Shown here: positions 33,670-44,269 of the stretch, in pieces
How the letters are laid out: each line of letters begins with the position of its first letter
Position numbering within the stretch: the first letter of the stretch is position 1
Source: Limnohabitans sp.
Lineage (GTDB): Bacteria; Pseudomonadota; Gammaproteobacteria; Burkholderiales; Burkholderiaceae_C
DNA: 64,000 nt
NCBI RefSeq assembly: GCF_044361645.1
Contig: NZ_JBIKIL010000003.1
Span: forward strand, 2,623 to 66,622
Reading direction: 5' to 3'
Notes under the pieces: model-generated
Told to the model about the DNA's origin: nothing
What the model saw: only the letters and a program-made list of their open reading frames with translations
Database searches by the model: none
Translations under genes and position numbers: made by a program

Positions 33670-34470
<801 letters not shown>

Positions 34471-34487
34471 CGAGTTGACGAATCGGC

Positions 34488-35495
34488 CTAGACGCTGAGC
34501 AAAGCATCCAAAGGGCTGGCTGTGCCACCCGCGGCCACCTTCAGCACATGGGTGTAAATCATCGTTGTCGAGACGTCAGAATGACCCAGCAACTCTTGCA
34601 CCGTGCGAATGTCGGTGCCCGACTGCAGCAAATGCGTGGCAAACGAGTGGCGCAGCGTGTGAACGGATACGGGTTTGACAATGCCCGCAGCCGCAACGGC
34701 CTTTTTTAAGGCGCGTTGCAAGCGCTCTTCAAACAAGTGGTGGCGGCGCTCCACGCCACTGCGAGGGTCAACCGACAGCGTGGGCGAAGGAAACATCCAA
34801 AACCAGCCCCACGTATCACCTACCTTGGGGTATTTGCTAGCCAAAGCGTGGGGCACATCCACACCACCCCGTTGCACTTGCCGATCAGCCTCCCACTGCG
34901 CCCGTGCCGCCAACATTTGCAAACGCAAGGCCGGTGCCAGCGAGCGGGGCAGCATCACCACGCGGTCTTTGGACCCTTTGGCCTCGCGCACGATGATGGC
35001 CTGACGCTCAAAATCCACGTCTTTTATCCGCAAGCGCATCCCCTCCATCAGCCGCATGCCCGTGCCGTACAGCAGCCGAGCCAGCAGCGCAGTCACGCCG
35101 TCCATCTGTGCCAAAAGACCAGCCACTTCGTCTTTGGTCAGCACCGACGGAATGCGCTTGGTCTGCTGAGGTCGACCAATGTTATTGAGCCAAGGTAAAT
35201 CAATGCCCAGCACCTCCCGGTACAAAAACAGCAGAGCACTGAGCGCTTGGTTGTGAGTGGAGGCCGACACCTTGCGCTCATTGGCCAGCATGGACAAAAA
35301 AGCTTCGACATCGGCCACACCCAACTCGCGCGGGTGACGCATGCCGCCTGACTGCGTGGCGCTCCAGCGGATAAAAAAACGAATCCAATAAAGGTAAGCT
35401 TTCTCGGTTTTGAGGCTATAGTGCATATACCGAACCCGCTCGCGCACCTGATCAAGCAAGCGGGTGGACTGCAAGGAAGGGGCACCGGGTTTCAT
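34488..35495 (-). CDS. intI: Integron integrase (IntI1/IntI3-like clade)
   Basis: [22 protein letters not shown]; LLYGTGMR; KGSKDR; integron-specific insert LASKYP...W.WFWMFPS...[11 protein letters not shown]; [12 protein letters not shown]; [16 protein letters not shown]. All catalytic R-K-H-R-H-Y residues are present. Confidence 0.96.
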
Positions 35496-35508
35496 GGCAA
35501 ATTTATAC

Positions 35509-35524
35509 CTGTACAAAACCACAG
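35509..35524. promoter_or_regulatory. LexA (SOS) box CTGT-ACAAAACC-ACAG upstream of intI
   Basis: Matches CTGT-N8-ACAG and overlaps the intI -10, the arrangement established for SOS-regulated integrons. Confidence 0.85.
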
Positions 35525-35551
35525 TATACGAACCTGTAAGCCAAGGCGCAA
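35523..35551 (-). promoter_or_regulatory. PintI promoter TTGCGC-N17-TATACT
   Basis: Minus-strand hexamers at 35551-35546 and 35528-35523. Confidence 0.65.
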
Positions 35552-35577
35552 GCGGCTTGCGGCCATTTCATCCAAAA

Positions 35578-35636
35578 GATGTATCGACTGTGCCTGGATG
35601 TATCCACCGGGTTTTGCGGTCTACATCACGTTAGGC
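35578..35636 (+). other. attI recombination site
   Basis: Direct repeats GATGTATC at 35578 and 35597 (19-bp period), then core G/TTAGGC at 35630-35636 directly before the first cassette ORF. Confidence 0.8.
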
Positions 35637-35646
35637 CTCATATCAA

Positions 35647-36168
35647 ATGTTTCCTACTTCAATGAAGCTCAGTTTCTTCACCGCTGCACTGATCGCACTC
35701 TCTGTCATCACGGGTTGCGCAACTGCCCCTGCGGACGCTCCGAAGTTTTCAGCCGCTCCTGCGGCGCCTGAGGGCTTTGCCACCGTGTACGTTTTTCGGC
35801 TGAGTGCGCCCCCATTCTCAAGAGAAATTAAGTTGAGCATCGCGGGAAAGCCGTTGTTCGCCGCCACCGAACAGGCCTATACATGGGCGTACGTTCGTGC
35901 GGGCACTCACACGGTATATGCGGAGTGGCCGACTGAACTCTTCGGAAGCAAGCAATGGCCAGATGCATCCACGACGTTAGCCCTAGAAGCCGGTAAGTCT
36001 TACTTTGTCCGCGCCCTCGGAGATGTTGGAATTGTCTCGGGCGGGTTCCTGTCGGGCGGCTCTATTGTTCGGAGGAGCGGGCTCATCGTGCTTCCACAAG
36101 AGACAGGGCAAGCACAATTGATTGCCTGTTGTCGTTACATTAAGCCCGTCCTTAGCGTCGTCGAATGA
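35647..36168 (+). CDS. Gene cassette 1: DUF2846-like lipoprotein
   Basis: Lipobox VITGC, ATVYVFR, YTWAYVRAGTHTV; bounded by GTTAGGC (35630) and its complement GCCTAAC (36170). Confidence 0.7.
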   Translation: MFPTSMKLSFFTAALIALSVITGCATAPADAPKFSAAPAAPEGFATVYVFRLSAPPFSREIKLSIAGKPLFAATEQAYTWAYVRAGTHTVYAEWPTELFGSKQWPDASTTLALEAGKSYFVRALGDVGIVSGGFLSGGSIVRRSGLIVLPQETGQAQLIACCRYIKPVLSVVE

Positions 36169-36169
36169 G

Positions 36170-36224
36170 GCCTAACGAGTAAGGATAGGTCGCGCGAAGC
36201 CGCGACCTGATCCGTTTGTTGGAC
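36170..36224 (-). other. attC site in reverse orientation relative to attI
   Basis: Minus strand reads GTCCAAC-AAACG-GATCAGGTCGCG-GCTTCG-CGCGACCTATC-CTTACTC-GTTAGGC. The extra base (C on minus, G36209 on plus) marks the plus strand as the bottom strand. Confidence 0.75.
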
Positions 36225-36437
36225 GAGCCCGGTTCTGGGCGGTGGTTTGAGCCCTACAGAAAACATCTTTTTTGTCTTGCCTGTGCGATTGAGCATTCAC
36301 ATGGCTCAAGCGATCTGACGGCGTTGCGCCTTGTGCCATTGCGGCACTTTTGGGCCCTGTGTGGCTGTTTTTGGTCGCGCACATGCTCAGTGCTTTTGGG
36401 GCACTGTTGCGCAATCCTCAAGCTGAGATCGGGATTG

Positions 36438-36908
36438 TTACTGCTTCGTGGTGGCCTGACTGTGTTGCGGTGGCGGCGCATTGGTCGATGGCAAGATTCG
36501 GCGGCGCAGCACCCTCATGGCACCGGCGCAGCACGCGCACTTCCATTGCGCACGAGGCGTGGTCTGAGATGTCGCTGATGGGGTTGCGGTGCCACTTGGG
36601 CGCTTGAACACCAGCAACTTCAGCAAGGCGATCAGCCTTTTGCTGTTCGGATGCAAGAAACCAAAGTTGCGCGCCCTTCTAAAGCCTTTGGGCAAAACAT
36701 GCTGCATCACCAGACGCAGAAACTGCGCGCCACTCACGGTGCGCGTGGTCAGGCGTTTGGTTTTGCTGTCGCGCCAACGGTAGGTGACGTTGTTGCCGTC
36801 GCAGCGCAAGATGTCCTTCTCCTGAATGACGCCCCGGTACAAATAGCGGCCCAAGTAGATGATGGCCTTGTGACCACTGCCCACACTCTTGCAATCGACC
36901 ACCCACAC
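36438..36908 (-). pseudogene. IS91-family (Y2 HUH) transposase, C-terminal remnant
   Basis: WVVDCKSVGSGHKAIIYLGRYLYRG (YxxxY), VTYRWRD, FLRLVMQHVLPKGFRRARNFGFL, C-terminal CACC..M. The N-terminal Zn/HUH part is absent. Confidence 0.82.
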
Positions 36909-36997
36909 TGCGGTTCCTCCCCGATGACGTCAGGCTGCGATTGTGGACATGGCAAGATCATTTCGACCCAATAAAAAGCGAGCGCACATGACACGCT

Positions 36998-37054
36998 CGC
37001 TAACCCGTTGCTCCATCGAACGGCTTCGTAGCCCGCTGAGTGCCAACGCTAAAC
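36998..37054 (+). other. Degenerate attC (core GTT mutated to GCT)
   Basis: CGCTAAC-CCGTT-GCTCCA...GCTGAGT-GCCAAC-GCTAAAC. Restoring GTTAAAC gives the exact complement of the next cassette's inverse core GTTTAAC (37615). Confidence 0.6.
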
Positions 37055-37106
37055 CGCAGAAGAAATATTGGTTGTTGCCAATACGTTTTGTATATACACT
37101 TGCCGC

Positions 37107-37382
37107 ATGGAGTTCACTTGGTCTGAAACGAAGCGTGCAGCGAACATCAAAGCCCATGGGCTTGACTTCCTGGATGCCGCGAGCGTTTTTGAAGGCGTGA
37201 CATTTACGTTCGAGGATGACCGTTTTTCCTACGGCGAGCAACGCTTCGTTACGCTGGGCTTGCTCGCTGGCATCACTGTTTCAGTCGTACATACGGAGAA
37301 TGAACATGAAATCCGCGTCATCTCTTTCCGAAAAGCAACCAAGCGCGAGTCGCAAATCTACTTCGATGAAATCCAAAACTGA
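37107..37382 (+). CDS. brnT: BrnT family toxin (cassette)
   Basis: MEFTWSETKRAANIKAHGLDFLDA, YGEQRFVTLG, RVISFRKATKRE. Confidence 0.92.
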   Translation: MEFTWSETKRAANIKAHGLDFLDAASVFEGVTFTFEDDRFSYGEQRFVTLGLLAGITVSVVHTENEHEIRVISFRKATKRESQIYFDEIQN

Positions 37383-37620
37383 TTGGGCGCGCCTGAAGTC
37401 CGGTGCGGGCGAACAAAAGCCGGCCCCCGAGCACCCAGAGGCGAACGTAAAGCACATTGTTCGCGGTTTGGTTCGCAAGGGTTTGAAGCCGCTACCTGCC
37501 AAAGCATCCATTTCGCTGCGCGTGGATCAAGATGTGCTCGAATGGTTCAAGGCTCAAGGAGCGGGCTATCAGACGCGCATTAATACAGTTCTGAGGGCCT
37601 TCCGTGACGCTTCGGTTTAA
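37366..37620 (+). CDS. brnA: BrnA family antitoxin (cassette)
   Basis: TDWARL, ISLRVDQDVLEWFKAQGAGYQTRINTVLR; the stop TAA overlaps the attC inverse core. An upstream start at 37303 is possible. Confidence 0.9.
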   Translation: MKSKTDWARLKSGAGEQKPAPEHPEANVKHIVRGLVRKGLKPLPAKASISLRVDQDVLEWFKAQGAGYQTRINTVLRAFRDASV

Positions 37621-37701
37621 CAGGCTGCTCGTCACGTACACGCAGCAGCAGCTTGCCCCTGCGCGGCGCTTGTTGCGTGCCGGACAGCGCCAACTTTATG
37701 C
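37615..37701 (+). other. attC of the BrnTA cassette with dead core (GTT to TTT)
   Basis: GTTTAAC-AGGCT-GCT(C)GTC...GACAGC-GCCAAC-TTTATGC; canonical 5/6-nt spacers and extra C in L''. Confidence 0.72.
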
Positions 37702-37718
37702 GATACCAAAACCACCCC

Positions 37719-38105
37719 ATGCCGCAATCCACCGCAGTTGAAGTTGCAAAAGAGTTTTGGCGCCTTATGGCGAGCAATGACTTCCAAGCAGTCAGTGCTG
37801 TCCTGGCCCCCAACTTTGTACTCGAATGGCCTCAATCGAAGGAACGCATTCGCGGTGCCGAACGGTTCGCACAAATGAACCAGGAGTACCCGGCGCATGG
37901 CCACTGGAAGTTCACAGTCAATCGGCTTGTAGGCTCAGAGTCGGAGGCCGTGTCCGAGGTCGAAGTCACAGACGGAGTTCAAAAGGCCAGGGCCATCACC
38001 TTCTTTACCGTCCAGCAAGGCAAAGTCACACGGCTTGTCGAGTTTTGGCCCGAGCCTTATGCGCCTCCAGCCAATAGGGCGCACCTCGTAGAGGCAATGG
38101 AATGA
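37719..38105 (+). CDS. Gene cassette: SnoaL/NTF2-like protein
   Basis: VLAPNFVLEWPQSKERIRGAERFAQMNQEYP, FFTVQQGKVTRLVEFWPEP; followed by GCCTAAC. Confidence 0.8.
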   Translation: MPQSTAVEVAKEFWRLMASNDFQAVSAVLAPNFVLEWPQSKERIRGAERFAQMNQEYPAHGHWKFTVNRLVGSESEAVSEVEVTDGVQKARAITFFTVQQGKVTRLVEFWPEPYAPPANRAHLVEAME

Positions 38106-38121
38106 GCGTGCACGCAGAAGC

Positions 38122-38175
38122 GCCTAACGAGTAAGGACAGGTCGCACGTAGCCGCTTTTCTGTCCGTTTGTTGGC
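38122..38175 (-). other. Second reverse-oriented attC of the same family as 36170-36224
   Basis: 31/34 identity over the left part and an identical TCCGTTTGTTGG; GGACAG/CTGTCC arms; inner stem degenerate. Confidence 0.65.
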
Positions 38176-38776
38176 GTGCGCCCGGCATGGGCGCACACCT
38201 GTGGGTGCAAGTCCCGCCGCGAGCTGGTCACAGCGAGCTTGAGTGTTGCGCAACTGCATGAGGGTGACCGAGTGTGGGAAGGCAAGCGTGGCGCGTAAAC
38301 CGCGAGTCGATGAACAAAAATCGCATAGAAGGCGCTGCCAAGCAGGGCGAGCAAGCGCCAATTTGCAAAGCTCTTGTGACCAAGGCGAAGTGGCGTAGAT
38401 GCGGCGATTGTGCGGTGAAGGTGTGCGTTCTTACCCGGGGAGATCTCGCCCTACGGCTGAAAGGCCGACGGTGCAAGCCGCAAGCGAGAAGTCAGCAGAG
38501 ACCGTAGCAGTGGGCGTACGGGGTCGACGTGGCACAAAGAAATCCACGAAGGCCAAACGGTTGACGTCAATCAGGCGTTAGAGAGTGACTGAAGACATGC
38601 AAAGCCGCAAAGTCATGCGTCAGATGCTGGGGCAACCCGGGCTGGCAGGGAGGAAGCCCGGTGAAGCTGGGTGTGAGCCTGCCAGTGACGAAACTGGAGG
38701 GACGTTGCATGAGCACCCAGGCACAGGGTCAGCAAAGTCGATGGTCTTAACAGGTGGCCTGCTGGAGGCGGCGCTG
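38176..38776 (+). mobile_element. Group II intron, class C type, 5' fragment only (domains I to start of IV)
   Basis: Starts GTGCGCCCGGCATGGGCGC; GGGTGCAAGTCCCG; GTTCTTACCCGGGGAGATCT; GAGAAGTCAGCAGAGACCGTAG; IEP leader follows. No RT motifs or domain V seen. Confidence 0.8.
38597..38776 (+). pseudogene. N-terminal stub of the group II intron-encoded RT/maturase
   Basis: MQSRKVMRQMLGQPGLAG..GEAGCEPASDE...GTGS...LLEAAL, then unrelated sequence and a stop at 38812. Confidence 0.65.
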
Positions 38777-38952
38777 CTCATGCGCTGGGTAAGATGCGGT
38801 GATGACTGCTAAAAAGTTCTCAAATGCAGACACAAAGAGACTTTTGTAGGTATCCAGACAGACCATAATCTGCCTCTAACTTGGAACTTGAGAGTTGAAA
38901 GCATCAATCCCCTTTCTGAAGAAAGACTCACCACCGCCTTTGATGCGGTTTC

Positions 38953-39030
38953 GCTCAACATGGTTCATCAACCGCGAATGACGTCATCGCCGCTGGCGGG
39001 CCTTGCTGGCGCGGTGGATAAACGCTAGGT
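38953..39030 (+). other. Possible degenerate attC (core GCTAGGT)
   Basis: GCTCAAC...GTTCATCAACCGCG / CGCGGTGGATAAAC arms (12/14), then GCTAGGT just before the next ORF. Confidence 0.4.
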
Positions 39031-39065
39031 GTGAAACCACTTTTTGCGGCATTGAATCTATGCAT

Positions 39066-39461
39066 ATGCGATACGCACTCTGGCCCATTTTTCTCGTTGC
39101 CGCCGCGTCTGGTGCTGCCGCAGAAGAATCGTGCGGCATGCACGCCGTGAGTCTTCTTGCGGAAGGCAAGACTGAGGAACTGGCAGCCTTGTTCACAATC
39201 CAGTCCGAGGTTGTTGAGCCTTTGCAGCGCACGGTAGAAAGCCTCGGAAAAATTACGAACATCAAAGCAGCTTCGACTGCTCGCTTCGCTCAGCACAAGC
39301 GCATTTCAATTCAATCGAAAGATTTGCCGCCATCTTACAAATACCAGGGTTACTGGATCAACGCGCGCTCGGAGAGGCTCGGCGCGTTGCAATTTCATAT
39401 TGCTCGCGCACCTGAATCCGCCTGCAGACTGCTTGCGCTTCACATGGACACTGCGCCGTGA
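39066..39461 (+). CDS. Gene cassette: secreted hypothetical protein
   Basis: Signal peptide MRYALWPIFLVAAASGAAA; two Cys; flanked by attC-like remnants. Confidence 0.65.
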   Translation: MRYALWPIFLVAAASGAAAEESCGMHAVSLLAEGKTEELAALFTIQSEVVEPLQRTVESLGKITNIKAASTARFAQHKRISIQSKDLPPSYKYQGYWINARSERLGALQFHIARAPESACRLLALHMDTAP

Positions 39462-39489
39462 ATTTGATGCGATGCAAGCGACGGGCGTG

Positions 39490-39540
39490 GTTTAACCAGT
39501 TGCTGGTCACGGACAAGCAGCATCAGAATGCCGCCGCCGG
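39490..39540 (+). other. Left half of an attC similar to the 37615 site
   Basis: GTTTAAC-CAGTT-GCTGGTCACGGACAAGCAGCATCAG parallels GTTTAAC-AGGCT-GCTCGTCACGTACACGCAGCAGCAG; right arm and core not found. Confidence 0.5.
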
Positions 39541-39776
39541 AACGTGTCAATGACTTTGCTGCACCTTGCTTCATAAATTGACGCTGCAGGGCTGTTCTGT
39601 GATTGACGTCAACTGGCATCACGTCGAGGCGAAACCCGAATGAGCCTTCGCTGTTGAGGCCGTCCAAGCCCTCCAACTGAGCTTGGATGCTTGCGGATGA
39701 GATACCGCCGACGTATTGACAACAGCTACACCCGTGCCTGCCATTCGTAGCCACTGCATACACACGAAAGGTCACC

Positions 39777-40049
39777 ATGCGCGCCGCAGCCATCAATTTG
39801 CGTGCCTTGCCGGAACAGCGAGATCTCATTGATCACGCCGCCACCCTGCTGGGCAAGAACCGTTCTGACTTCATGCTGGAAGCCGCTTGTGAGCGTGCGC
39901 AATCGGTATTGCTCGACCAAGTGTTTTTTGGACTGGATGCGGAAAAGTTCCAGCAGTTCACCGCCCTGCTCGACGCGCCGCCCAGTGCCAATGCGGGTCT
40001 TGAGCGGCTGATGGCCGTCAAGGCCCCGTGGGACAGTCAAGCCACATGA
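39777..40049 (+). CDS. DUF1778 (RHH) antitoxin of a GNAT TA system
   Basis: AINLRA.PEQRDLIDHAATLLGKNRSDFMLEAACERAQSVLLDQ.FF.LD.EKF..F..LLD.PP. Confidence 0.92.
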   Translation: MRAAAINLRALPEQRDLIDHAATLLGKNRSDFMLEAACERAQSVLLDQVFFGLDAEKFQQFTALLDAPPSANAGLERLMAVKAPWDSQAT

Positions 40050-40540
40050 GCTTGAGCCTGTCAGCCCCGCAGCCACTGGCGGCTGCGCACCTGTTGGGCG
40101 ACTTCGAGTGCGGTGAGCCTGCGCTGGATGAGTGGCTGAAACGCCGGGCGCTGAACAACCATCTGAGCGGGGCCAGCAGGACCTTTGTGGTCGTTGACGA
40201 TGAACAGCGGGTGCGCGGTTTTTATGCCTTGGCCGCTGGCGCGGTCGTGCACCAGATGGCCACCCCTTCGGTGCGGCGCAACATGCCCGACCCGATTCCC
40301 GTCATGGTGCTGGGCAGGCTAGCGGTGGATCGTCGGTCACAAGGCATGCAACTGGGAGCGGCACTGTTGCAGGACGCGGTCCATCGCGCCATTGCCGTGT
40401 CGCAAAACACCGGCGTTCGCGCCTTGCTGGTTCATGCGCTGCACGAACAGGCCAAAGCGTTTTATAAGCACTACGGGTTTCAGGAATCGCCAACACACCC
40501 CATGACGCTGATGTTGCGCCTGAACAGCGTCAAGGCTTGA
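40046..40540 (+). CDS. GNAT acetyltransferase toxin (TacT/AtaT-like)
   Basis: FECGEPALDEWL, GFYAL, LGRLAVD...G..LG..LL, LLVHAL.E.AKAFY..YGF; ATGA overlap with the antitoxin. Confidence 0.92.
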   Translation: MSLSLSAPQPLAAAHLLGDFECGEPALDEWLKRRALNNHLSGASRTFVVVDDEQRVRGFYALAAGAVVHQMATPSVRRNMPDPIPVMVLGRLAVDRRSQGMQLGAALLQDAVHRAIAVSQNTGVRALLVHALHEQAKAFYKHYGFQESPTHPMTLMLRLNSVKA

Positions 40541-40554
40541 TTTTCCCCACAGGG

Positions 40555-40955
40555 CCGGCACCAGTCCTAGCCAGACGCAGAATGGGTGCCCGCCGGCAAA
40601 GTCTCGGCCTTTCTCCACTGTGGCCGCAGTGGCAGTGGCAGTGGCAGTGGCAGTGGCAGTGGTCGGGCCAATGCCTGCGAACTGCATCAGTTGGCGTGAT
40701 CACACATCTTCTTTGGTGGCTTGCTCAATGTGGTGGTCATACTGCTTGACACGTTCATCCCAGAGGCTCAACTCGCTCAGTGCATCGGCTGCGTCGGTGT
40801 TGCACCAGCCGGGCAAGTCTTCGCGGTGCATGTGCGCATGGCAGCGCACAGTGGCAGCTTTCAGAGGCAGCACAATGCCCAATTCAGACAACAGTCCTGA
40901 ATGCGATGGATCAGCGCAGTGCGTTGTTCCACATTCCACATAAGCTGGGCCCCTC
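40555..40955 (-). pseudogene. IS110/IS1111-family transposase internal fragment
   Basis: VEQRTALIHRI / GLLSELGIVLPLKAATVR...EDLPGW.N...D.RVKQYD.HI...D.*SRQLM...GIGPTTATA...WLGLVP; frameshift, in-frame TGA at 40700-40702, both ends missing. Confidence 0.8.
40626..40661. repeat. Hexamer microsatellite (GCAGTG)x6 inside the IS110 remnant
   Basis: Six exact copies; reads TATATATATAT in the transposase frame. Confidence 0.95.
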
Positions 40956-40977
40956 GTGCCACTTGGGCGCTCCCCAA

Positions 40978-41055
40978 GTGCCAGGCATGCGTGAGTCGAC
41001 CAAAGAAGGCATGGCCCAAGCACCGGACACATGCGCCAAGGCGCTCGACGGGTGA
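40978..41055 (+). pseudogene. C-terminal remnant of a YefM/Phd-type antitoxin
   Basis: VPGMRESTKEGMAQAPDTCAKALDG*; the stop overlaps the GTG of the YoeB-like toxin. Confidence 0.65.
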
Positions 41056-41315
41056 GCTGGAAAGTTTTTGATGCCAAGCACGCATAAAAAGAAGCGCAGA
41101 AACTGTCAGCCAGCGGGCTGAAGGGCAAAGCCCAAGAACTGCTGGCCATCATCCAAGAAAACCCATTTCAAAATCCACCCCCTTATGAAAAGCCCGTAGG
41201 CGATCTATCGGACGCCTGTTCATGGCGAATCAATATCCAGCATCGCCTTGTGTACGAAGTTCTCCAGGAGCAAAAAATCGTCAAAGTTCTTCGCATGTGG
41301 TCACACCATGAATAA
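41052..41315 (+). pseudogene. Txe/YoeB family toxin with a premature stop
   Basis: MSWKVFDAKHA*KEAQKLSASGLKGKAQELLAIIQENPFQNPPPYEKPVGDLSDACSWRINIQHRLVYEV...VLRMWSHHE; TAA at 41085-41087. Confidence 0.85.
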
Positions 41316-41393
41316 GCGGCGCAACGGTATGAATCGCACCGGATTTTGTGGAAGCAGCTTGGATGTTGCCGACGAATCCGCTAGAGTCGAAGG

Positions 41394-41633
41394 ATGGCAC
41401 CTACCGTTGTACGCGATGGACCTTACCGGTTGTTCTTCTTCTCCTGATAAGAGCCAAGCATCCACTTCCATGTCGCACATCCAGATGGAGAGGCCAAGTT
41501 CTGGCTGACCCCCGTTGTTCACTTGGCGACATCCACGGGCCTGTCACCCCGCCAGATCACTGACGCGCAAGGCGTTGTTCAAGCACACATGAAGGAAATT
41601 GAAGATGCATGGAACCATCACTTTGGCGGCTGA
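41394..41633 (+). pseudogene. DUF4160 family protein (toxin of the DUF4160-DUF2442 pair) with tandem stops
   Basis: MAPTVVRDGPYRLFFFS**EPSIHFHVAHPDGEAKFWL...EIEDAWNHHFGG; TGA-TAA at 41445-41450. Confidence 0.8.
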
Positions 41634-41856
41634 GGTCACCAACATCTCTCGCCATGGCTTCTGGATGCGCCTTGGCGACGAGGAGTTGCTGTTGTCCTAT
41701 GAACAATTCCCCTGGTTTAAACAAGCCACGGTGGCGCAAATCACCCACGTTGAGCGTCCTACTCCAGATCACCTTTATTGGCCGAGCCTGGACATAGACC
41801 TATCCGTTAGCGCTATTCGCAGGCCCCAAGATTTTCCGCTCATGTCGCGCAGCTGA
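41605..41856 (+). CDS. DUF2442 family protein (partner of DUF4160)
   Basis: EVTNISRHGFWMRLGDEELLLSYEQFPWFKQAT...HLYWPSLDIDLSV. Confidence 0.82.
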   Translation: MHGTITLAAEVTNISRHGFWMRLGDEELLLSYEQFPWFKQATVAQITHVERPTPDHLYWPSLDIDLSVSAIRRPQDFPLMSRS

Positions 41857-42044
41857 TTGTGCAACCGTTGCCGAAACCCGTTCCCCTCACGCAGGATGTG
41901 ATGGTCAGATCACTTTTGCCTGAGGATCAGCTGCAAATCGCCCAATTGAGGCTGCATTACTGAGGCATGCTGGTTGCTGGGTCAAAGAATTCAAAGTGAT
42001 GGCTGTTTTGATAAGATTCAATCCTACTCACTCAAAGGCCCGTC

Positions 42045-42314
42045 ATGCGAACCACTCAACAACTGAGCATCACATTGCCCAATGAGATGGCCGATGCCAT
42101 CAAGAGGAAAGTGCGTGCAGGCGAGTACGCGACAGAAAGCGAAGTCATTCGCGAAGGTCTTCGCGCACTTCTAAGCCGAGACCGCGCCATTGAGTCTTGG
42201 CTGACGCATCAAGTCGGTGCGGCTTACGATGCACTCAAGGCTGATCCAACGAGAGCTGTCACGGTGGATCAGGTGCGTGAGCGCCTTGCACAAGAGCACA
42301 CCAAGTTGCAATGA
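42045..42314 (+). CDS. ParD-like RHH antitoxin
   Basis: LSITLPNEMADAI..KV..GEYATESEVIREGLRAL. Confidence 0.85.
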   Translation: MRTTQQLSITLPNEMADAIKRKVRAGEYATESEVIREGLRALLSRDRAIESWLTHQVGAAYDALKADPTRAVTVDQVRERLAQEHTKLQ

Positions 42315-42637
42315 CACACCGGGTTGTCTTTTCGCCCGAGGCTTTGGAACAAATTGCTGACCTTTACCAGTACATCGCATCCGAGGCCTCGCCTAGTATT
42401 GCTTTGCGCTACACCGAAGCCATTGTGAGCTACTGCGAAAGCCTGAGCATTTTTCCTCAGCGCGGCATGAAACGCGACGATGTGCGGACTGGTTTGCGCA
42501 TCACACACTACAAAAAACGCGCAGTGATTGCTTTTGCAGTAGATGCAGGGTGGGTATCCATCTTGGGCATCTTTTACGGAGGGCAGGATTATGAGTCTTT
42601 GCTGGCCGACGATTCGGACGATGGCGTGCCCCATTGA
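42311..42637 (+). CDS. ParE/RelE family toxin
   Basis: RVVFSPEALEQIADLYQYIA, FPQRG..RDDVR.GLR, VIAF.V....V.ILGIFYGGQD; ATGA overlap with the antitoxin. Confidence 0.87.
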   Translation: MTHRVVFSPEALEQIADLYQYIASEASPSIALRYTEAIVSYCESLSIFPQRGMKRDDVRTGLRITHYKKRAVIAFAVDAGWVSILGIFYGGQDYESLLADDSDDGVPH

Positions 42638-42690
42638 GGGTTTGCAGGTTTATGAAAACGTCACAGTCAATCACTTAAGATCACCCCCCT

Positions 42691-43080
42691 ATGAATTGGC
42701 TCGACAACATCAAATGGGACGACAAAGGCTTGGTGCCTGTGATCGCCCAAGAAAAAGACACCGGCGATGTGATGATGTTCGCCTGGATGAACCGCGAGGC
42801 GCTGCAAAAGACGGCCGAGCTCAAGCGGGCGGTGTATTTCAGCCGCTCGCGCAACAAGCTGTGGTTCAAGGGCGAGGAGTCGGGCCATGTGCAGACGGTG
42901 CACGAGATCCGCATCGATTGCGACAACGATGTGGTCTTGCTGAAAATCACCCAGCTGGGGCACGAGCCGGGCATTGCCTGCCACACGGGTCGCCACAGCT
43001 GCTTTTTCCAGAGCTTGCAGCCAGACGGCTGGCAGGCTGTGGACCCGGTCCTGAAGGACCCTGAAACCATTTACAAGTGA
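42691..43080 (+). CDS. hisI: Phosphoribosyl-AMP cyclohydrolase
   Basis: [32 protein letters not shown]. Confidence 0.96.
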
Positions 43081-43085
43081 ACGCG

Positions 43086-43478
43086 ATGAGTTCTACCGAC
43101 ACCTTGGCCCCGTCCTCTGAAGACACGCTCGCGCGTCTGGCCGCCATCATCGAAAGCCGCAAAGCGGCCAACGGTGGCGACCCCGAGACCAGCTATGTGG
43201 CCCGCCTGCTGCACAAGGGGCCGGACGCTTTTTTGAAGAAAATCGGCGAAGAAGCCACCGAAACTGTGATGGCTGCCAAAGACGTGGAGCACGGCGGCGA
43301 TGCGTCCAAGCTGGTGTGCGAGGTGGCCGATTTGTGGTTTCACAGCATGATCGCGCTGGCGCACTATGGTCTGACGCCCGCCGACGTGGTCAACGAGTTG
43401 GCCCGCCGCGAAGGCCTGAGCGGCCTGGAAGAAAAAGCCCTGCGCAAAGTGCAAGAGCGCGAGCGCTTGGGCGAATAG
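43086..43478 (+). CDS. hisE: Phosphoribosyl-ATP pyrophosphatase
   Basis: [30 protein letters not shown]. Confidence 0.95.
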
Positions 43479-43505
43479 ATTGCACGCTTGGGCGAATAGA
43501 TTTCA
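43464..43505 (+). repeat. 21-bp tandem duplication spanning the hisE stop
   Basis: CGCTTGGGCGAATAGATTGCA / CGCTTGGGCGAATAGATTTCA (20/21), with a weaker third unit after. Confidence 0.85.
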
Positions 43506-43523
43506 CCTTGGAGCGAACAAACC

Positions 43524-43886
43524 ATGAACGACCAACCCGTCGATGACAGCACCCACACCACCAGCTGGGTCAGCTACATCTTGCACCTGATCGTGGCAGT
43601 CAGCGCCGTGATTCCGGGTGCCCAGATGGGCCCGGCCTTGCTGGTGGTGGCGCTGATCATCGATTTGGTCAAAAAAGGCGACACCGCAGGCTGGGAAGCC
43701 ACGCATTTCAGCTACCGCATCCGCACTGTGATTTGGGCCGCTTTGATGTACTTGATCACAGCACCTTTGTGGCTCTTGATGTTTTTCCCCGGCTGGCTGG
43801 CCTGGGTGGGCATTTCCATCTGGTTTTTGTACCGCATCGTGCTGGGCATGGTGCGCCTGAACGGGCAGCGACCGGTGACCGACTGA
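43524..43886 (+). CDS. Small inner-membrane protein (DUF4870-like)
   Basis: Three hydrophobic segments; THFSYRIRT..W, WFLYRIVLG; usual neighbour of hisE. Confidence 0.7.
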   Translation: MNDQPVDDSTHTTSWVSYILHLIVAVSAVIPGAQMGPALLVVALIIDLVKKGDTAGWEATHFSYRIRTVIWAALMYLITAPLWLLMFFPGWLAWVGISIWFLYRIVLGMVRLNGQRPVTD

Positions 43887-43912
43887 ACTCTTTTTCTCAA
43901 TCCAATCAAGCC

Positions 43913-44269
43913 ATGACCGACGCCAACTGCCTATTTTGCAAAATCATCGCGGGCAAGATTCCCTCTCGCAAGGTGTACGAAGACGAACACGTGTTCTCTT
44001 TTCACGACATTGCGCCTTGGGCGCCCATCCATTTTTTGATCATCCCGAAGCTGCACATCCCGTCCATGGCGCAGCTGGGGCCAGAGCACACGGCCTTGCT
44101 GGGGCACATGATGACGTTGGCCCCCAAGCTGGCCTTGCAAGAGGGTTGCAAGCCTTATCCCGAAGGCGGTTTCCGGATCGTGGTCAACAACGGTGCCGAG
44201 GGTGGCCAAGAGGTGCACCACTTGCACATGCACGTCATGGGCGGCCCACGACCTTGGCTGCGGGCCTGA
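43913..44269 (+). CDS. Histidine triad nucleotide-binding protein (HinT-like)
   Basis: CLFCKII, HFLIIPK, QEVHHLHMHVMGG. Confidence 0.93.
   Translation: MTDANCLFCKIIAGKIPSRKVYEDEHVFSFHDIAPWAPIHFLIIPKLHIPSMAQLGPEHTALLGHMMTLAPKLALQEGCKPYPEGGFRIVVNNGAEGGQEVHHLHMHVMGGPRPWLRA

Follow-up and report, generated by a model that had tools for sequence, protein, structure and literature searches.

The stretch of DNA analysed here, hereafter called the window, comprises 64,000 nucleotides of contig NZ_JBIKIL010000003.1 of a Limnohabitans sp. and carries a chromosomal integron wedged in the his operon, between hisF and hisI (window positions 34470-34488 and 42637-42691). Directly behind the first gene cassette of its array, at 36170-36908, a reversed site resembling attC adjoins a fragment of an IS91-like transposase gene. 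A preliminary description of this DNA had taken the pair for a rolling-circle element that carries its own attC and docks backwards in arrays. Our analysis indicates that the feature is probably the junction between the inverse core (R'', GCCTAAC) of the attC of cassette 1 and the oriIS-side end of a truncated copy of a ~2.42-kb insertion sequence (IS) of the IS91 family. Its parts are as follows:

36170-36176, plus strand: inverse core (R'') GCCTAAC of the attC of cassette 1, the target half-site left beside the ori end; the flanks of the copies differ up to this box and agree from it.
36177-36224, minus strand: oriIS-side end of the element, an attC-like hairpin, with the sense strand GTCCAAC AAAC GGAT[C]AGGTCGCG GCTTCG CGCGACCTATCC TTACTC.
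36225-36437, minus strand: 3' untranslated region of the element, in which 36227-36240 form a second palindrome, GCCC-GGTTCT-GGGC.
36438-36908, minus strand: C-terminal 156 amino acids of a Y2 HUH (IS91-family) transposase (PF04986), lacking the N-terminal ~217 amino acids.
36910-36913: truncation point, where homology with the full copy on contig C4 of the same genome ends (BLAST).

On the plus strand, 36170-36224 reads GCCTAAC GAGTAA GGATAGGTCGCG CGAAGC CGCGACCT[G]ATCC GTTT GTTGGAC, in which the RYYYAAC...GTTRRRY boxes are present as GCCTAAC...GTTGGAC. DNA folding of 36166-36228 (plus strand) reproduced the structure drawn in the preliminary description: GGATAGGTCGCG pairs with CGCGACCT-ATCC, G36209 is bulged on the 3' arm, the AAC/GTT ends are paired, the loop CGAAGC occupies 36195-36200, and TTGTT (36216-36220) precedes the end. 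The fold energy of -12.7 kcal/mol (z = -2.6) was equalled by one of 200 shuffles. A home-made covariance model of the attC bottom strand (R1) was built from the attCs of aadA1, aadA2, cmlA1 and aac(6')-Ib3 together with seven environmental attCs, with the tested hairpins kept out of training, and searched over 34000-44000. Its top match was 36170-36224 on the plus strand (24.5 bits, E = 4.5e-5), against 6.5 bits on the minus strand. The forward attC at 37615-37701 was matched on the minus strand (15.7 bits), as was the one at 36998-37054 by a weak, non-significant match (6.5 bits, E = 3.4); the orientation of the latter is taken from the box order in its sequence and from the clearer match at 37615-37701. 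Since R1 matches the plus strand at this site but the minus strand at forward attCs, the site is attC-like and reversed. It points towards intI, opposite to the normal attCs, as had been claimed, and running this model on both strands, a check of the kind that had been proposed, did not refute the reversed reading.

Like the attC of aadA1, the site has a spacer of 6 bases after RYYYAAC and a distance of 8 bases from the bulged G to GTT. Class 1 attCs have two extrahelical bases on the same bottom-strand arm in a T-N6-G pattern (PMC3053210); the hairpin has a single one, the bulged G, with no second bulged T. The T in the spacer was considered as the second extrahelical base and rejected, as the alignment with the aadA1 attC puts the canonical T 5' of the G within the stem, where it is absent here.

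The open reading frame (ORF) at 36438-36908 (minus strand) matches Pfam Y2_Tnp (PF04986, E = 1.8e-25) at model positions 92-179 only, and is thus a C-terminal fragment. A search for full-length copies, as had been suggested, found one at C4:2040-4468, with the same hairpin at the 3' end of the transposase gene. This copy, also on the minus strand, encodes a 373-amino-acid transposase that scores 358 bits with NF033538 (cut-off 125), in agreement with the IS91-family assignment first proposed, and its C-terminal part is 95% identical at the DNA level to the fragment in the window. The far end of the C4 copy, ...GAAGCCGCTACGCGGAG..., adjoins GTCCAAC at C4:4468. Measured against it, the window copy spans 36177-36913 on the minus strand and has lost its 5' 1.7 kb.

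The complete element is ~2.4 kb long and consists of a gene for a Xer/IntI-like tyrosine recombinase (int), a Y2 HUH transposase gene (tnpA), a ~215-base 3' region and the attC-like hairpin. Its sense strand starts with GGAC GAAGCCGC-TAC-GCGG, a small terIS-type palindrome, and finishes with GTCCAAC AAAC, the hairpin with one bulged C, TTAYTC and GTT. On the antisense strand, with slashes at the element boundaries, this becomes 5'-xAAC / GAGTAA-hairpin-GTTT-GTTGGAC ... tnpA, int ... CCGC-GTA-GCGG-CTTC-GTCCAAC / -3', and the ori end has the layout of an attC bottom strand: RYYYAAC, six bases, the stem, and a bulged G eight bases before GTTRRRY. The ori side thus carries two palindromes, the hairpin (36183-36213 in the window) and GCCC/GGGC (36227-36240), and the ter side carries CCGC-N3-4-GCGG, conserved in 30 copies. 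The two ends covary, GGAC occurring with GTCCAAC 20 times and GAAC with GTTCAAC twice, with one mismatch.

The recombinase gene lies upstream of tnpA in all full copies seen and is gone from the window copy, which bears out the earlier suggestion of a lost partner recombinase. The encoded protein is 27% identical to the IntI of the window and closest to IntI/Xer models. Its TIGR02249 scores of 78-146 bits are below the cut-off of 265, so it is not an IntI by this test, and an alignment with the window IntI showed that ~31 residues of the IntI-specific insertion (alpha-I2 region) are missing. In most copies a -1 frame change at a conserved run of A, C4:3625-3640 (CTAAAAAAAAGAT, A8), interrupts the gene. 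The frame change is also found in L011, L013, L015, L016, L045, L049, L088, L100 and L141, with A7 or A9 in some, and the gene is in frame in L020, L039, L080 and L145. The A run looks like a site of programmed frameshifting or transcriptional slippage, which might give either an N-terminal DNA-binding product or the full recombinase.

To learn whose structure the hairpin is, relatives of the element were compared. In other Burkholderiales, Moraxellaceae and Desulfobulbaceae, transposase relatives of 51-80% identity invariably finish with CCGGGCTYGTYCAAC AAAC, hairpin, TTAYTC GTT, and the same hairpin ends a relative on an E. coli plasmid (37% transposase identity). The motifs AAAAGATATTTTC and CCGGGCTYGTYCAAC of the 3' region are likewise kept in distant relatives. 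A pattern scan for GGGCTYGTYCAACAAACGG, with one genome per species, gave at least 120 loci; among the matches listed are Beta-, Gamma- and Zetaproteobacteria, Desulfobacterota, Planctomycetota, Bacteroidota, Verrucomicrobiota and others. Across 126 distinct copies from many phyla, the hairpin is kept with covariation and a conserved bulge. Stem pairing over the 12 pairs reaches 96.7% in 104 unique hairpins (38% and 34% when the register is shifted), and four stem pairs show double compensatory changes (T-A/A-T 83:15, A-T/G-C 93:5, C-G/T-A 54:44, T-A/C-G 78:18). On the sense strand, 97 of the 104 have C as the bulged base. Because stem pairing is conserved with compensatory changes and a conserved bulge across relatives, the hairpin is assigned to the element, and these patterns identify it as a selected structure of the element and not a site of the host array. 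The proposed linkage of an attC-like hairpin to the 3' end of the transposase gene thus holds in every relative examined.

The four bases after the terminal GTT of the element (sense strand) are A/G, G/T, G and C/T in the 104 unique copies, that is, the RRRY of a core site, and in 102 of them the ori end is flanked by xAAC (GTTRRRY on the sense strand). In all eight insertions of this genome and in every relative with flanks read, the element is antisense, placing its sense strand on the bottom strand of the attC, and sits exactly at the GTT/AAC of R''. The top strand then has the layout ORF - R'' (AAC) / reversed hairpin - GTTGGAC - element antisense - GTCCAAC / resident attC body - R'. In most full copies, the 5' flank is an attC bottom strand ending in TTGTT right before GGACGAAGCC, and the rejoined flanks mostly form complete attC hairpins with a single GTT and no target duplication. 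As judged from these flanks, the element is shown to split the resident attC into a half with the ORF and R'' and a body without R''. Antisense docking at the inverse core of a resident attC, as first described, was therefore recovered in this genome, in relatives and on the E. coli plasmid. The accompanying idea that the element replaces the site of that cassette did not hold, since intact copies keep the resident attC body past their far end (C172, C43, L013, L015, L141, L145). In C172 and C43, a forward resident attC body ending in GTTAGGC or GTTAGCC directly follows the GTCCAAC of the element.

The clearest case is the conjugative E. coli IncC plasmid NZ_LT985243.1 (L145, 10929-13309), where a relative of the element sits in the attC of aadA1 in a class 1 integron. 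The array reads intI1-aac(6')-Ib3-aadA2-cmlA1-aadA1-[recombinase + IS91 transposase, antisense]-qacEdelta1-sul1. The left flank of the element is ATCTAAC GCTTGA GTTAAGCCGCGCCGC GAAG CGGCGTCGGCTT[G]AAC GAATT GTT, and on its right AGAC leads into the reverse complement of the aadA1 stop; the aadA1 attC is hence cut between GAATTGTT and AGAC, within the GTT of R'', with no duplication. A megablast of this copy against 5,426 complete E. coli genomes gave no match, and PLSDB contained one full copy and one 3' remnant (254 bp, 95% identical, on a plasmid of Shewanella sp. ANA-3).

Some insertions, a minority, are not in attC and follow TGTT, either behind a hairpin or without one (L011, L039, L045, L113, L120), which fits a transposase with a short target. 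The full copy in L011 (1640-1680, 4085-4180) follows a palindrome of the CCCTCTCCC/GGGAGAGGG type and then GTT, which is not an attC. A hairpin followed by GTT, and not attC in itself, may be the target.

In the genome of the window, the hairpin with the 3' region and tnpA occurs in eight places (the window, C4:2033, C172:5833, C172:7653, C88:1090, C88:2061 and twice in C191). Their upstream flanks all differ, usually being the end of a plus-strand ORF, and agreement starts exactly at GCCTAAC. The 3' region is 92-97% identical in C4, both C172 copies and C88:1090, and ~81-85% in the second C88 copy and the two in C191. C4:2040-4468 is the one full-length copy and at least six others are truncated; C172 includes an internally deleted copy that keeps both ends. 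Six remnants keep the ori end and break at different points, and the ter end alone is kept by one remnant only (C43). Premature termination of rolling-circle replication was considered for the six and rejected: their truncation junctions have neither AAC nor an attC body and are joined to unrelated cassette DNA. Because no breakpoint shows AAC or an attC body, the truncations are best read as plain deletions. The hairpin itself is found in 11 places of the genome, followed by the element in eight, by an intron in two (see below) and, unexplained, by neither in one (C1:24098), with unrelated sequence after the stem.

The window copy has undergone the same fate. Its recombinase gene and ter end, 217 N-terminal residues of its transposase and the attC body of cassette 1 are all absent, a later deletion having taken the 5' 1.7 kb of the element together with the resident attC body; the resident site is missing in the window only because of this deletion. 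The 84 bases after the break (36914-36997) have no match elsewhere in the genome. The window copy is dead and unable to move, with cassette 1 left without a forward attC.

In contigs from four lake-water metagenomes, the hairpin and 3' region had ~5-20 times the assembler depth of the remaining parts of the element. The depths were summed over every contig at least 90% alike to the element, those of other organisms included, and are suggestive only, not copy numbers. Many different flanks in these contigs start at the TAAC boundary. The element was present in at least 20 lake-water metagenome runs from 2020-2025, and an internally deleted form (C4 2719 joined to 3886) recurred in three of the four runs compared.

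By its transposase and end architecture, the element is placed in the IS91 family (IS91, IS801, IS1294, IS1294b and the ISCR relatives). Like these, it has a Y2 HUH transposase, causes no target duplication, has an ori with two palindromes downstream of tnpA and a ter with one small palindrome by the cleavage site, and uses a short target beside ori that resembles the last ter bases (xAAC, CAAC); a circle of the antisense strand is also plausible (PMC13181058). Unlike them, it targets the AAC/GTT of the attC inverse core in strict orientation, its ori palindrome is attC-like, and a Xer/IntI-like recombinase takes the place of orf121. Within the family it is nearest to the two-ORF members with an upstream gene of the phage-integrase type, for example ISAzo26, ISSod25, ISShvi3 and ISWz1 in the ISfinder listing.

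The anatomy fits the published IS91 scheme, in which a tetranucleotide target lies beside oriIS, the tetranucleotide at ter cleavage resembles the target, subterminal palindromes (one or two at ori, one small at ter) are present, a bottom-strand single-stranded circle is functional, and the transposase alone inserts this circle (PMC13181058). Following this scheme, copying of the antisense strand from the ori end onwards would yield a single-stranded circle, which the transposase would join 3' of a tetranucleotide xAAC, at R'' its AAC; the last bases of the ter end are CAAC. The hairpin, in its attC-like form, and the GTTGGAC box would make up the ori palindrome and help to choose AAC sites flanked by hairpins, and GTTGGAC may base-pair first with the ter end and later with RYYYAAC of the target. 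The recombinase would be an accessory or alternative integration factor. In the window, the later deletion removed the recombinase gene, the N-terminus of the transposase and the resident attC body.

Several observations weigh against this account. Element and target hairpins are mirror images on any strand, so recognition of both as the same site leaves the strict orientation unexplained, and since both attC strands carry RYYYAAC, the box does not account for it either. The base concerned is C on both partners, which makes a cut at AAC/ (HUH) indistinguishable from one at AA/C (tyrosine recombinase). The target is xAAC, as opposed to CTTG/GTTC in the IS91 members studied so far, and the hairpin has one extrahelical base, as opposed to two in class 1 attCs. 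The recombinase is kept in every full copy seen, making an idle role for it unlikely. No circle junction was found in the element-matching contigs of the four lake metagenomes. In favour of the account is one locus, L057 (738-830), on a 2.7-kb contig of an uncultured betaproteobacterium metagenome-assembled genome, where the 3' end of one element copy is joined directly to a 5' end, …CCTTAATC GTT GGACGAAGCCGC…, with the junction TTAATC GTT GGACGAAGCC; the join stems either from a tandem pair or from a circle junction that was assembled.

The retention of the recombinase leads to the strongest competing account, a "reverse cassette" moved by two enzymes. The HUH enzyme would make the circle, its joined ends would fold into an attC bottom strand, and the element's own recombinase would recombine this with the resident R''. 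At such a circle junction, the hairpin would be enclosed by a fully complementary R box (GTCCAAC/GTTGGAC, 7/7), in keeping with the covariation of the ends. The recombinase, the attC-like hairpin and the targeting of attC co-occur in the limited set covered (~20 full-length relatives and two plasmid hits), the nearest models of the recombinase are those of IntI/Xer, and the conserved frameshift site in its gene suggests regulated expression. The transposase of IS91, however, performs insertion alone (PMC13181058), the insertions after a bare TGTT outside attC look like the use of a tetranucleotide target, the recombinase lacks the IntI insertion that reads extrahelical bases, and use of the top strand of a resident attC would be unprecedented for this enzyme class. 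We regard this route as rather unlikely, and it stays a serious rival because the recombinase is conserved in all full copies. Extended to the whole recombinase-plus-IS91 subgroup, the idea would make it a self-mobilising reverse cassette that couples two systems of single-strand DNA, the folded circle being integrated at the inverse core of resident attCs by its own recombinase or by the host IntI; we consider this doubtful. If true, it would mean that integron-type recombination of folded sites was recruited by a transposon, or that cassettes and the element share an origin.

Far less probable is that the element is an ordinary cassette, moved by the host IntI via its attC and caught in a rare inverted insertion. 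It does begin with TTGGAC and have an R'' of its own, GTCCAAC, which is a cassette hallmark, and the site scores as an attC in R1, a model trained on real attCs. Canonical recombination of bottom strand with bottom strand would, however, place the element sense-on-top at R' (G/TT), an arrangement never seen in the flanks read, all of which have the antisense arrangement at R'' described above; this canonical reaction is therefore excluded as the origin of the insertions. Insertions are also found in genomes or sites without attC (L011, L045), and the extrahelical base is single. When both strand pairings were worked through for an inverted IntI insertion, only resident top strand with element bottom strand gave the observed layout, a pairing that is non-canonical and leaves this as a low-odds rival. 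Least probable of all, to the point of being negligible, is a family of resident attCs in this genome to which the IS91-like element and the intron are merely adjacent, or a chance deletion junction. Such a family would explain why both follow an identical hairpin here and why the hairpin directly follows cassette ORFs. Against it, the hairpin is conserved with the transposase across phyla while the attCs of the hosts differ, the resident site on the E. coli plasmid is the known aadA1 attC with the hairpin inside the inserted segment, and the hairpin of this genome is found in front of the element, the intron or neither. The related candidate of a host attC targeted by both IS and intron was rejected, as in other orders the hairpin stands beside different host attCs. 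We thus return to the IS91-type insertion into R'' as the preferred account.

Functionally, the nearest parallels are IS1111-attC elements and group IIC-attC introns. The introns (S.ma.I2 and relatives) use the bottom strand of attC, which they enter after the hairpin, at TTGT/T of R'', in antisense orientation (PMC7923331, PMC3001079). Like the element, they part the cassette ORF from the attC body and are also found after other hairpins; unlike it, they are retroelements with a ribozyme and a reverse transcriptase, and have no attC mimic. IS1111-attC elements (IS110 family) share the targeting of attC at a fixed position and orientation, according to work cited in PMC9229058, and differ in having a DEDD transposase, no HUH enzyme, no tyrosine recombinase and other ends. 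Integron cassettes resemble the element in that it opens with TTGGAC and closes with R'' GTCCAAC, the hairpin and G/TT, recognised by R1 at 24.5 bits. They differ in that the element lies antisense at R'' and not at R', has one extrahelical base, is also found outside integrons and has two mobility enzymes of its own. IS200/IS605 elements share HUH single-strand transposition, subterminal hairpins and insertion 3' of a short sequence recognised with the element's own DNA, and differ in their Y1 transposase, family and size and in having no link to attC.

Full-text searches of the literature did not turn up the target rule, the fixed orientation or the conserved attC-like end, and to that extent the view that the arrangement had not been described stands. 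It needs correcting in that an IS91-like element beside attC has been mentioned in passing (PMC9229058, PMC12772301): a Shewanella study took ISShvi3 beside attC as "a new gene cassette structure" (PMC9229058), and ISCR28, a possible member of the element's family, has been reported with attC sites at its end (PMC12772301).

Group IIC-attC introns and IS1111-attC elements are two kinds of mobile element that home on attC. The element would be the third, the first to use a rolling-circle transposase and also the first that brings its own imitation of the site. By severing a cassette gene from its attC, an insertion should freeze the cassette, block transcription from the promoter Pc and seed deletions; in this genome, cassette 1 is without a forward attC, and dead ori-end remnants are scattered through the arrays. 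With a relative in the aadA1 attC of a clinical class 1 integron, the element also matters for reading and annotating resistance arrays, as such sites are easily mistaken for new cassettes or reversed attCs. It would also provide a natural system in which to study how folded single-stranded DNA is recognised by an HUH enzyme and a Xer/IntI-like recombinase.

The other features of the integron that bear on this account are as follows:

34488-35522, minus strand: intI, the integron integrase of the array (NF011946 460 bits, cut-off 435; TIGR02249 448 bits; Pfam Phage_integrase match).
35630-35636, plus strand: attI core GTTAGGC, recognised in the sequence, which sets the array direction as plus.
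35647-36168, plus strand: cassette 1 ORF, DUF2846 lipoprotein-like (Pfam PF11008, E = 1.7e-8).
36998-37054, plus strand: attC in normal orientation of a neighbouring cassette remnant, with the degenerate R' core GCTAAAC, recognised in the sequence.
38122-38177, plus strand: second R'' box and element hairpin with a degenerate stem, found by pattern match, directly followed by the intron.
38178-38790, plus strand: class C group II intron, 5' part only, truncated on the 3' side, end approximate (Rfam RF02001, a model of domains I-IV, at 38258-38429, 100.5 bits).

The second hairpin is identical to the first site over 24 of 24 bases at its start, with no such match expected by chance. The intron behind it starts with GTGCG at 38178, in a hairpin-intron junction common to C148. 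Here too, the intron follows a hairpin of the bottom-strand type, with the junction TTGGC/GTGCG as opposed to the TTGT/T of group IIC-attC introns. On its 3' side, no RF00029 match, domain V/VI or reverse-transcriptase ORF was found in the assembly. A hairpin-seeking intron has thus treated the antisense strand of the element end like a terminator or the bottom strand of an attC. A sister variant of the intron (~84-86% identity in the first ~115 bases) lies directly after rho-independent terminators (hairpin, T run, GTGCG) at the contig ends C69, C208, C24, C132, C27, C116 and C215; two of these seven sites are behind tRNA genes, and the variant breaks the assembly. Its siting at terminators is class C behaviour.

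On the other side of the integron, hisA/hisF stop at 34470, and intI is convergent on hisF with a 17-base gap. The cassette array is on the plus strand and reaches ~42680, beyond which hisI, hisE and tatABC follow. The attI core GTTAGGC is complementary to the GCCTAAC at 36170, as expected of the two ends of cassette 1. No homologous DNA of this cassette was found in 80 related genomes, which leaves no empty site for comparison. Cassette 1 (DUF2846) and the reversed hairpin/IS91 feature are followed by BrnT/BrnA, a SnoaL-like gene, the intron fragment and several toxin-antitoxin cassettes. The R' cores of the forward attCs are degenerate (GCTAAAC at 37048-37054, TTTATGC at 37695-37701 and GCTAGGT at 39024-39030, vs GTTRRRY), and intI looks intact. 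Most of the array may therefore be frozen. Positions 40617-40665, in the spacer after a GNAT toxin (TacT-like) cassette, are a perfect (GGCAGT)n microsatellite of ~7 units.

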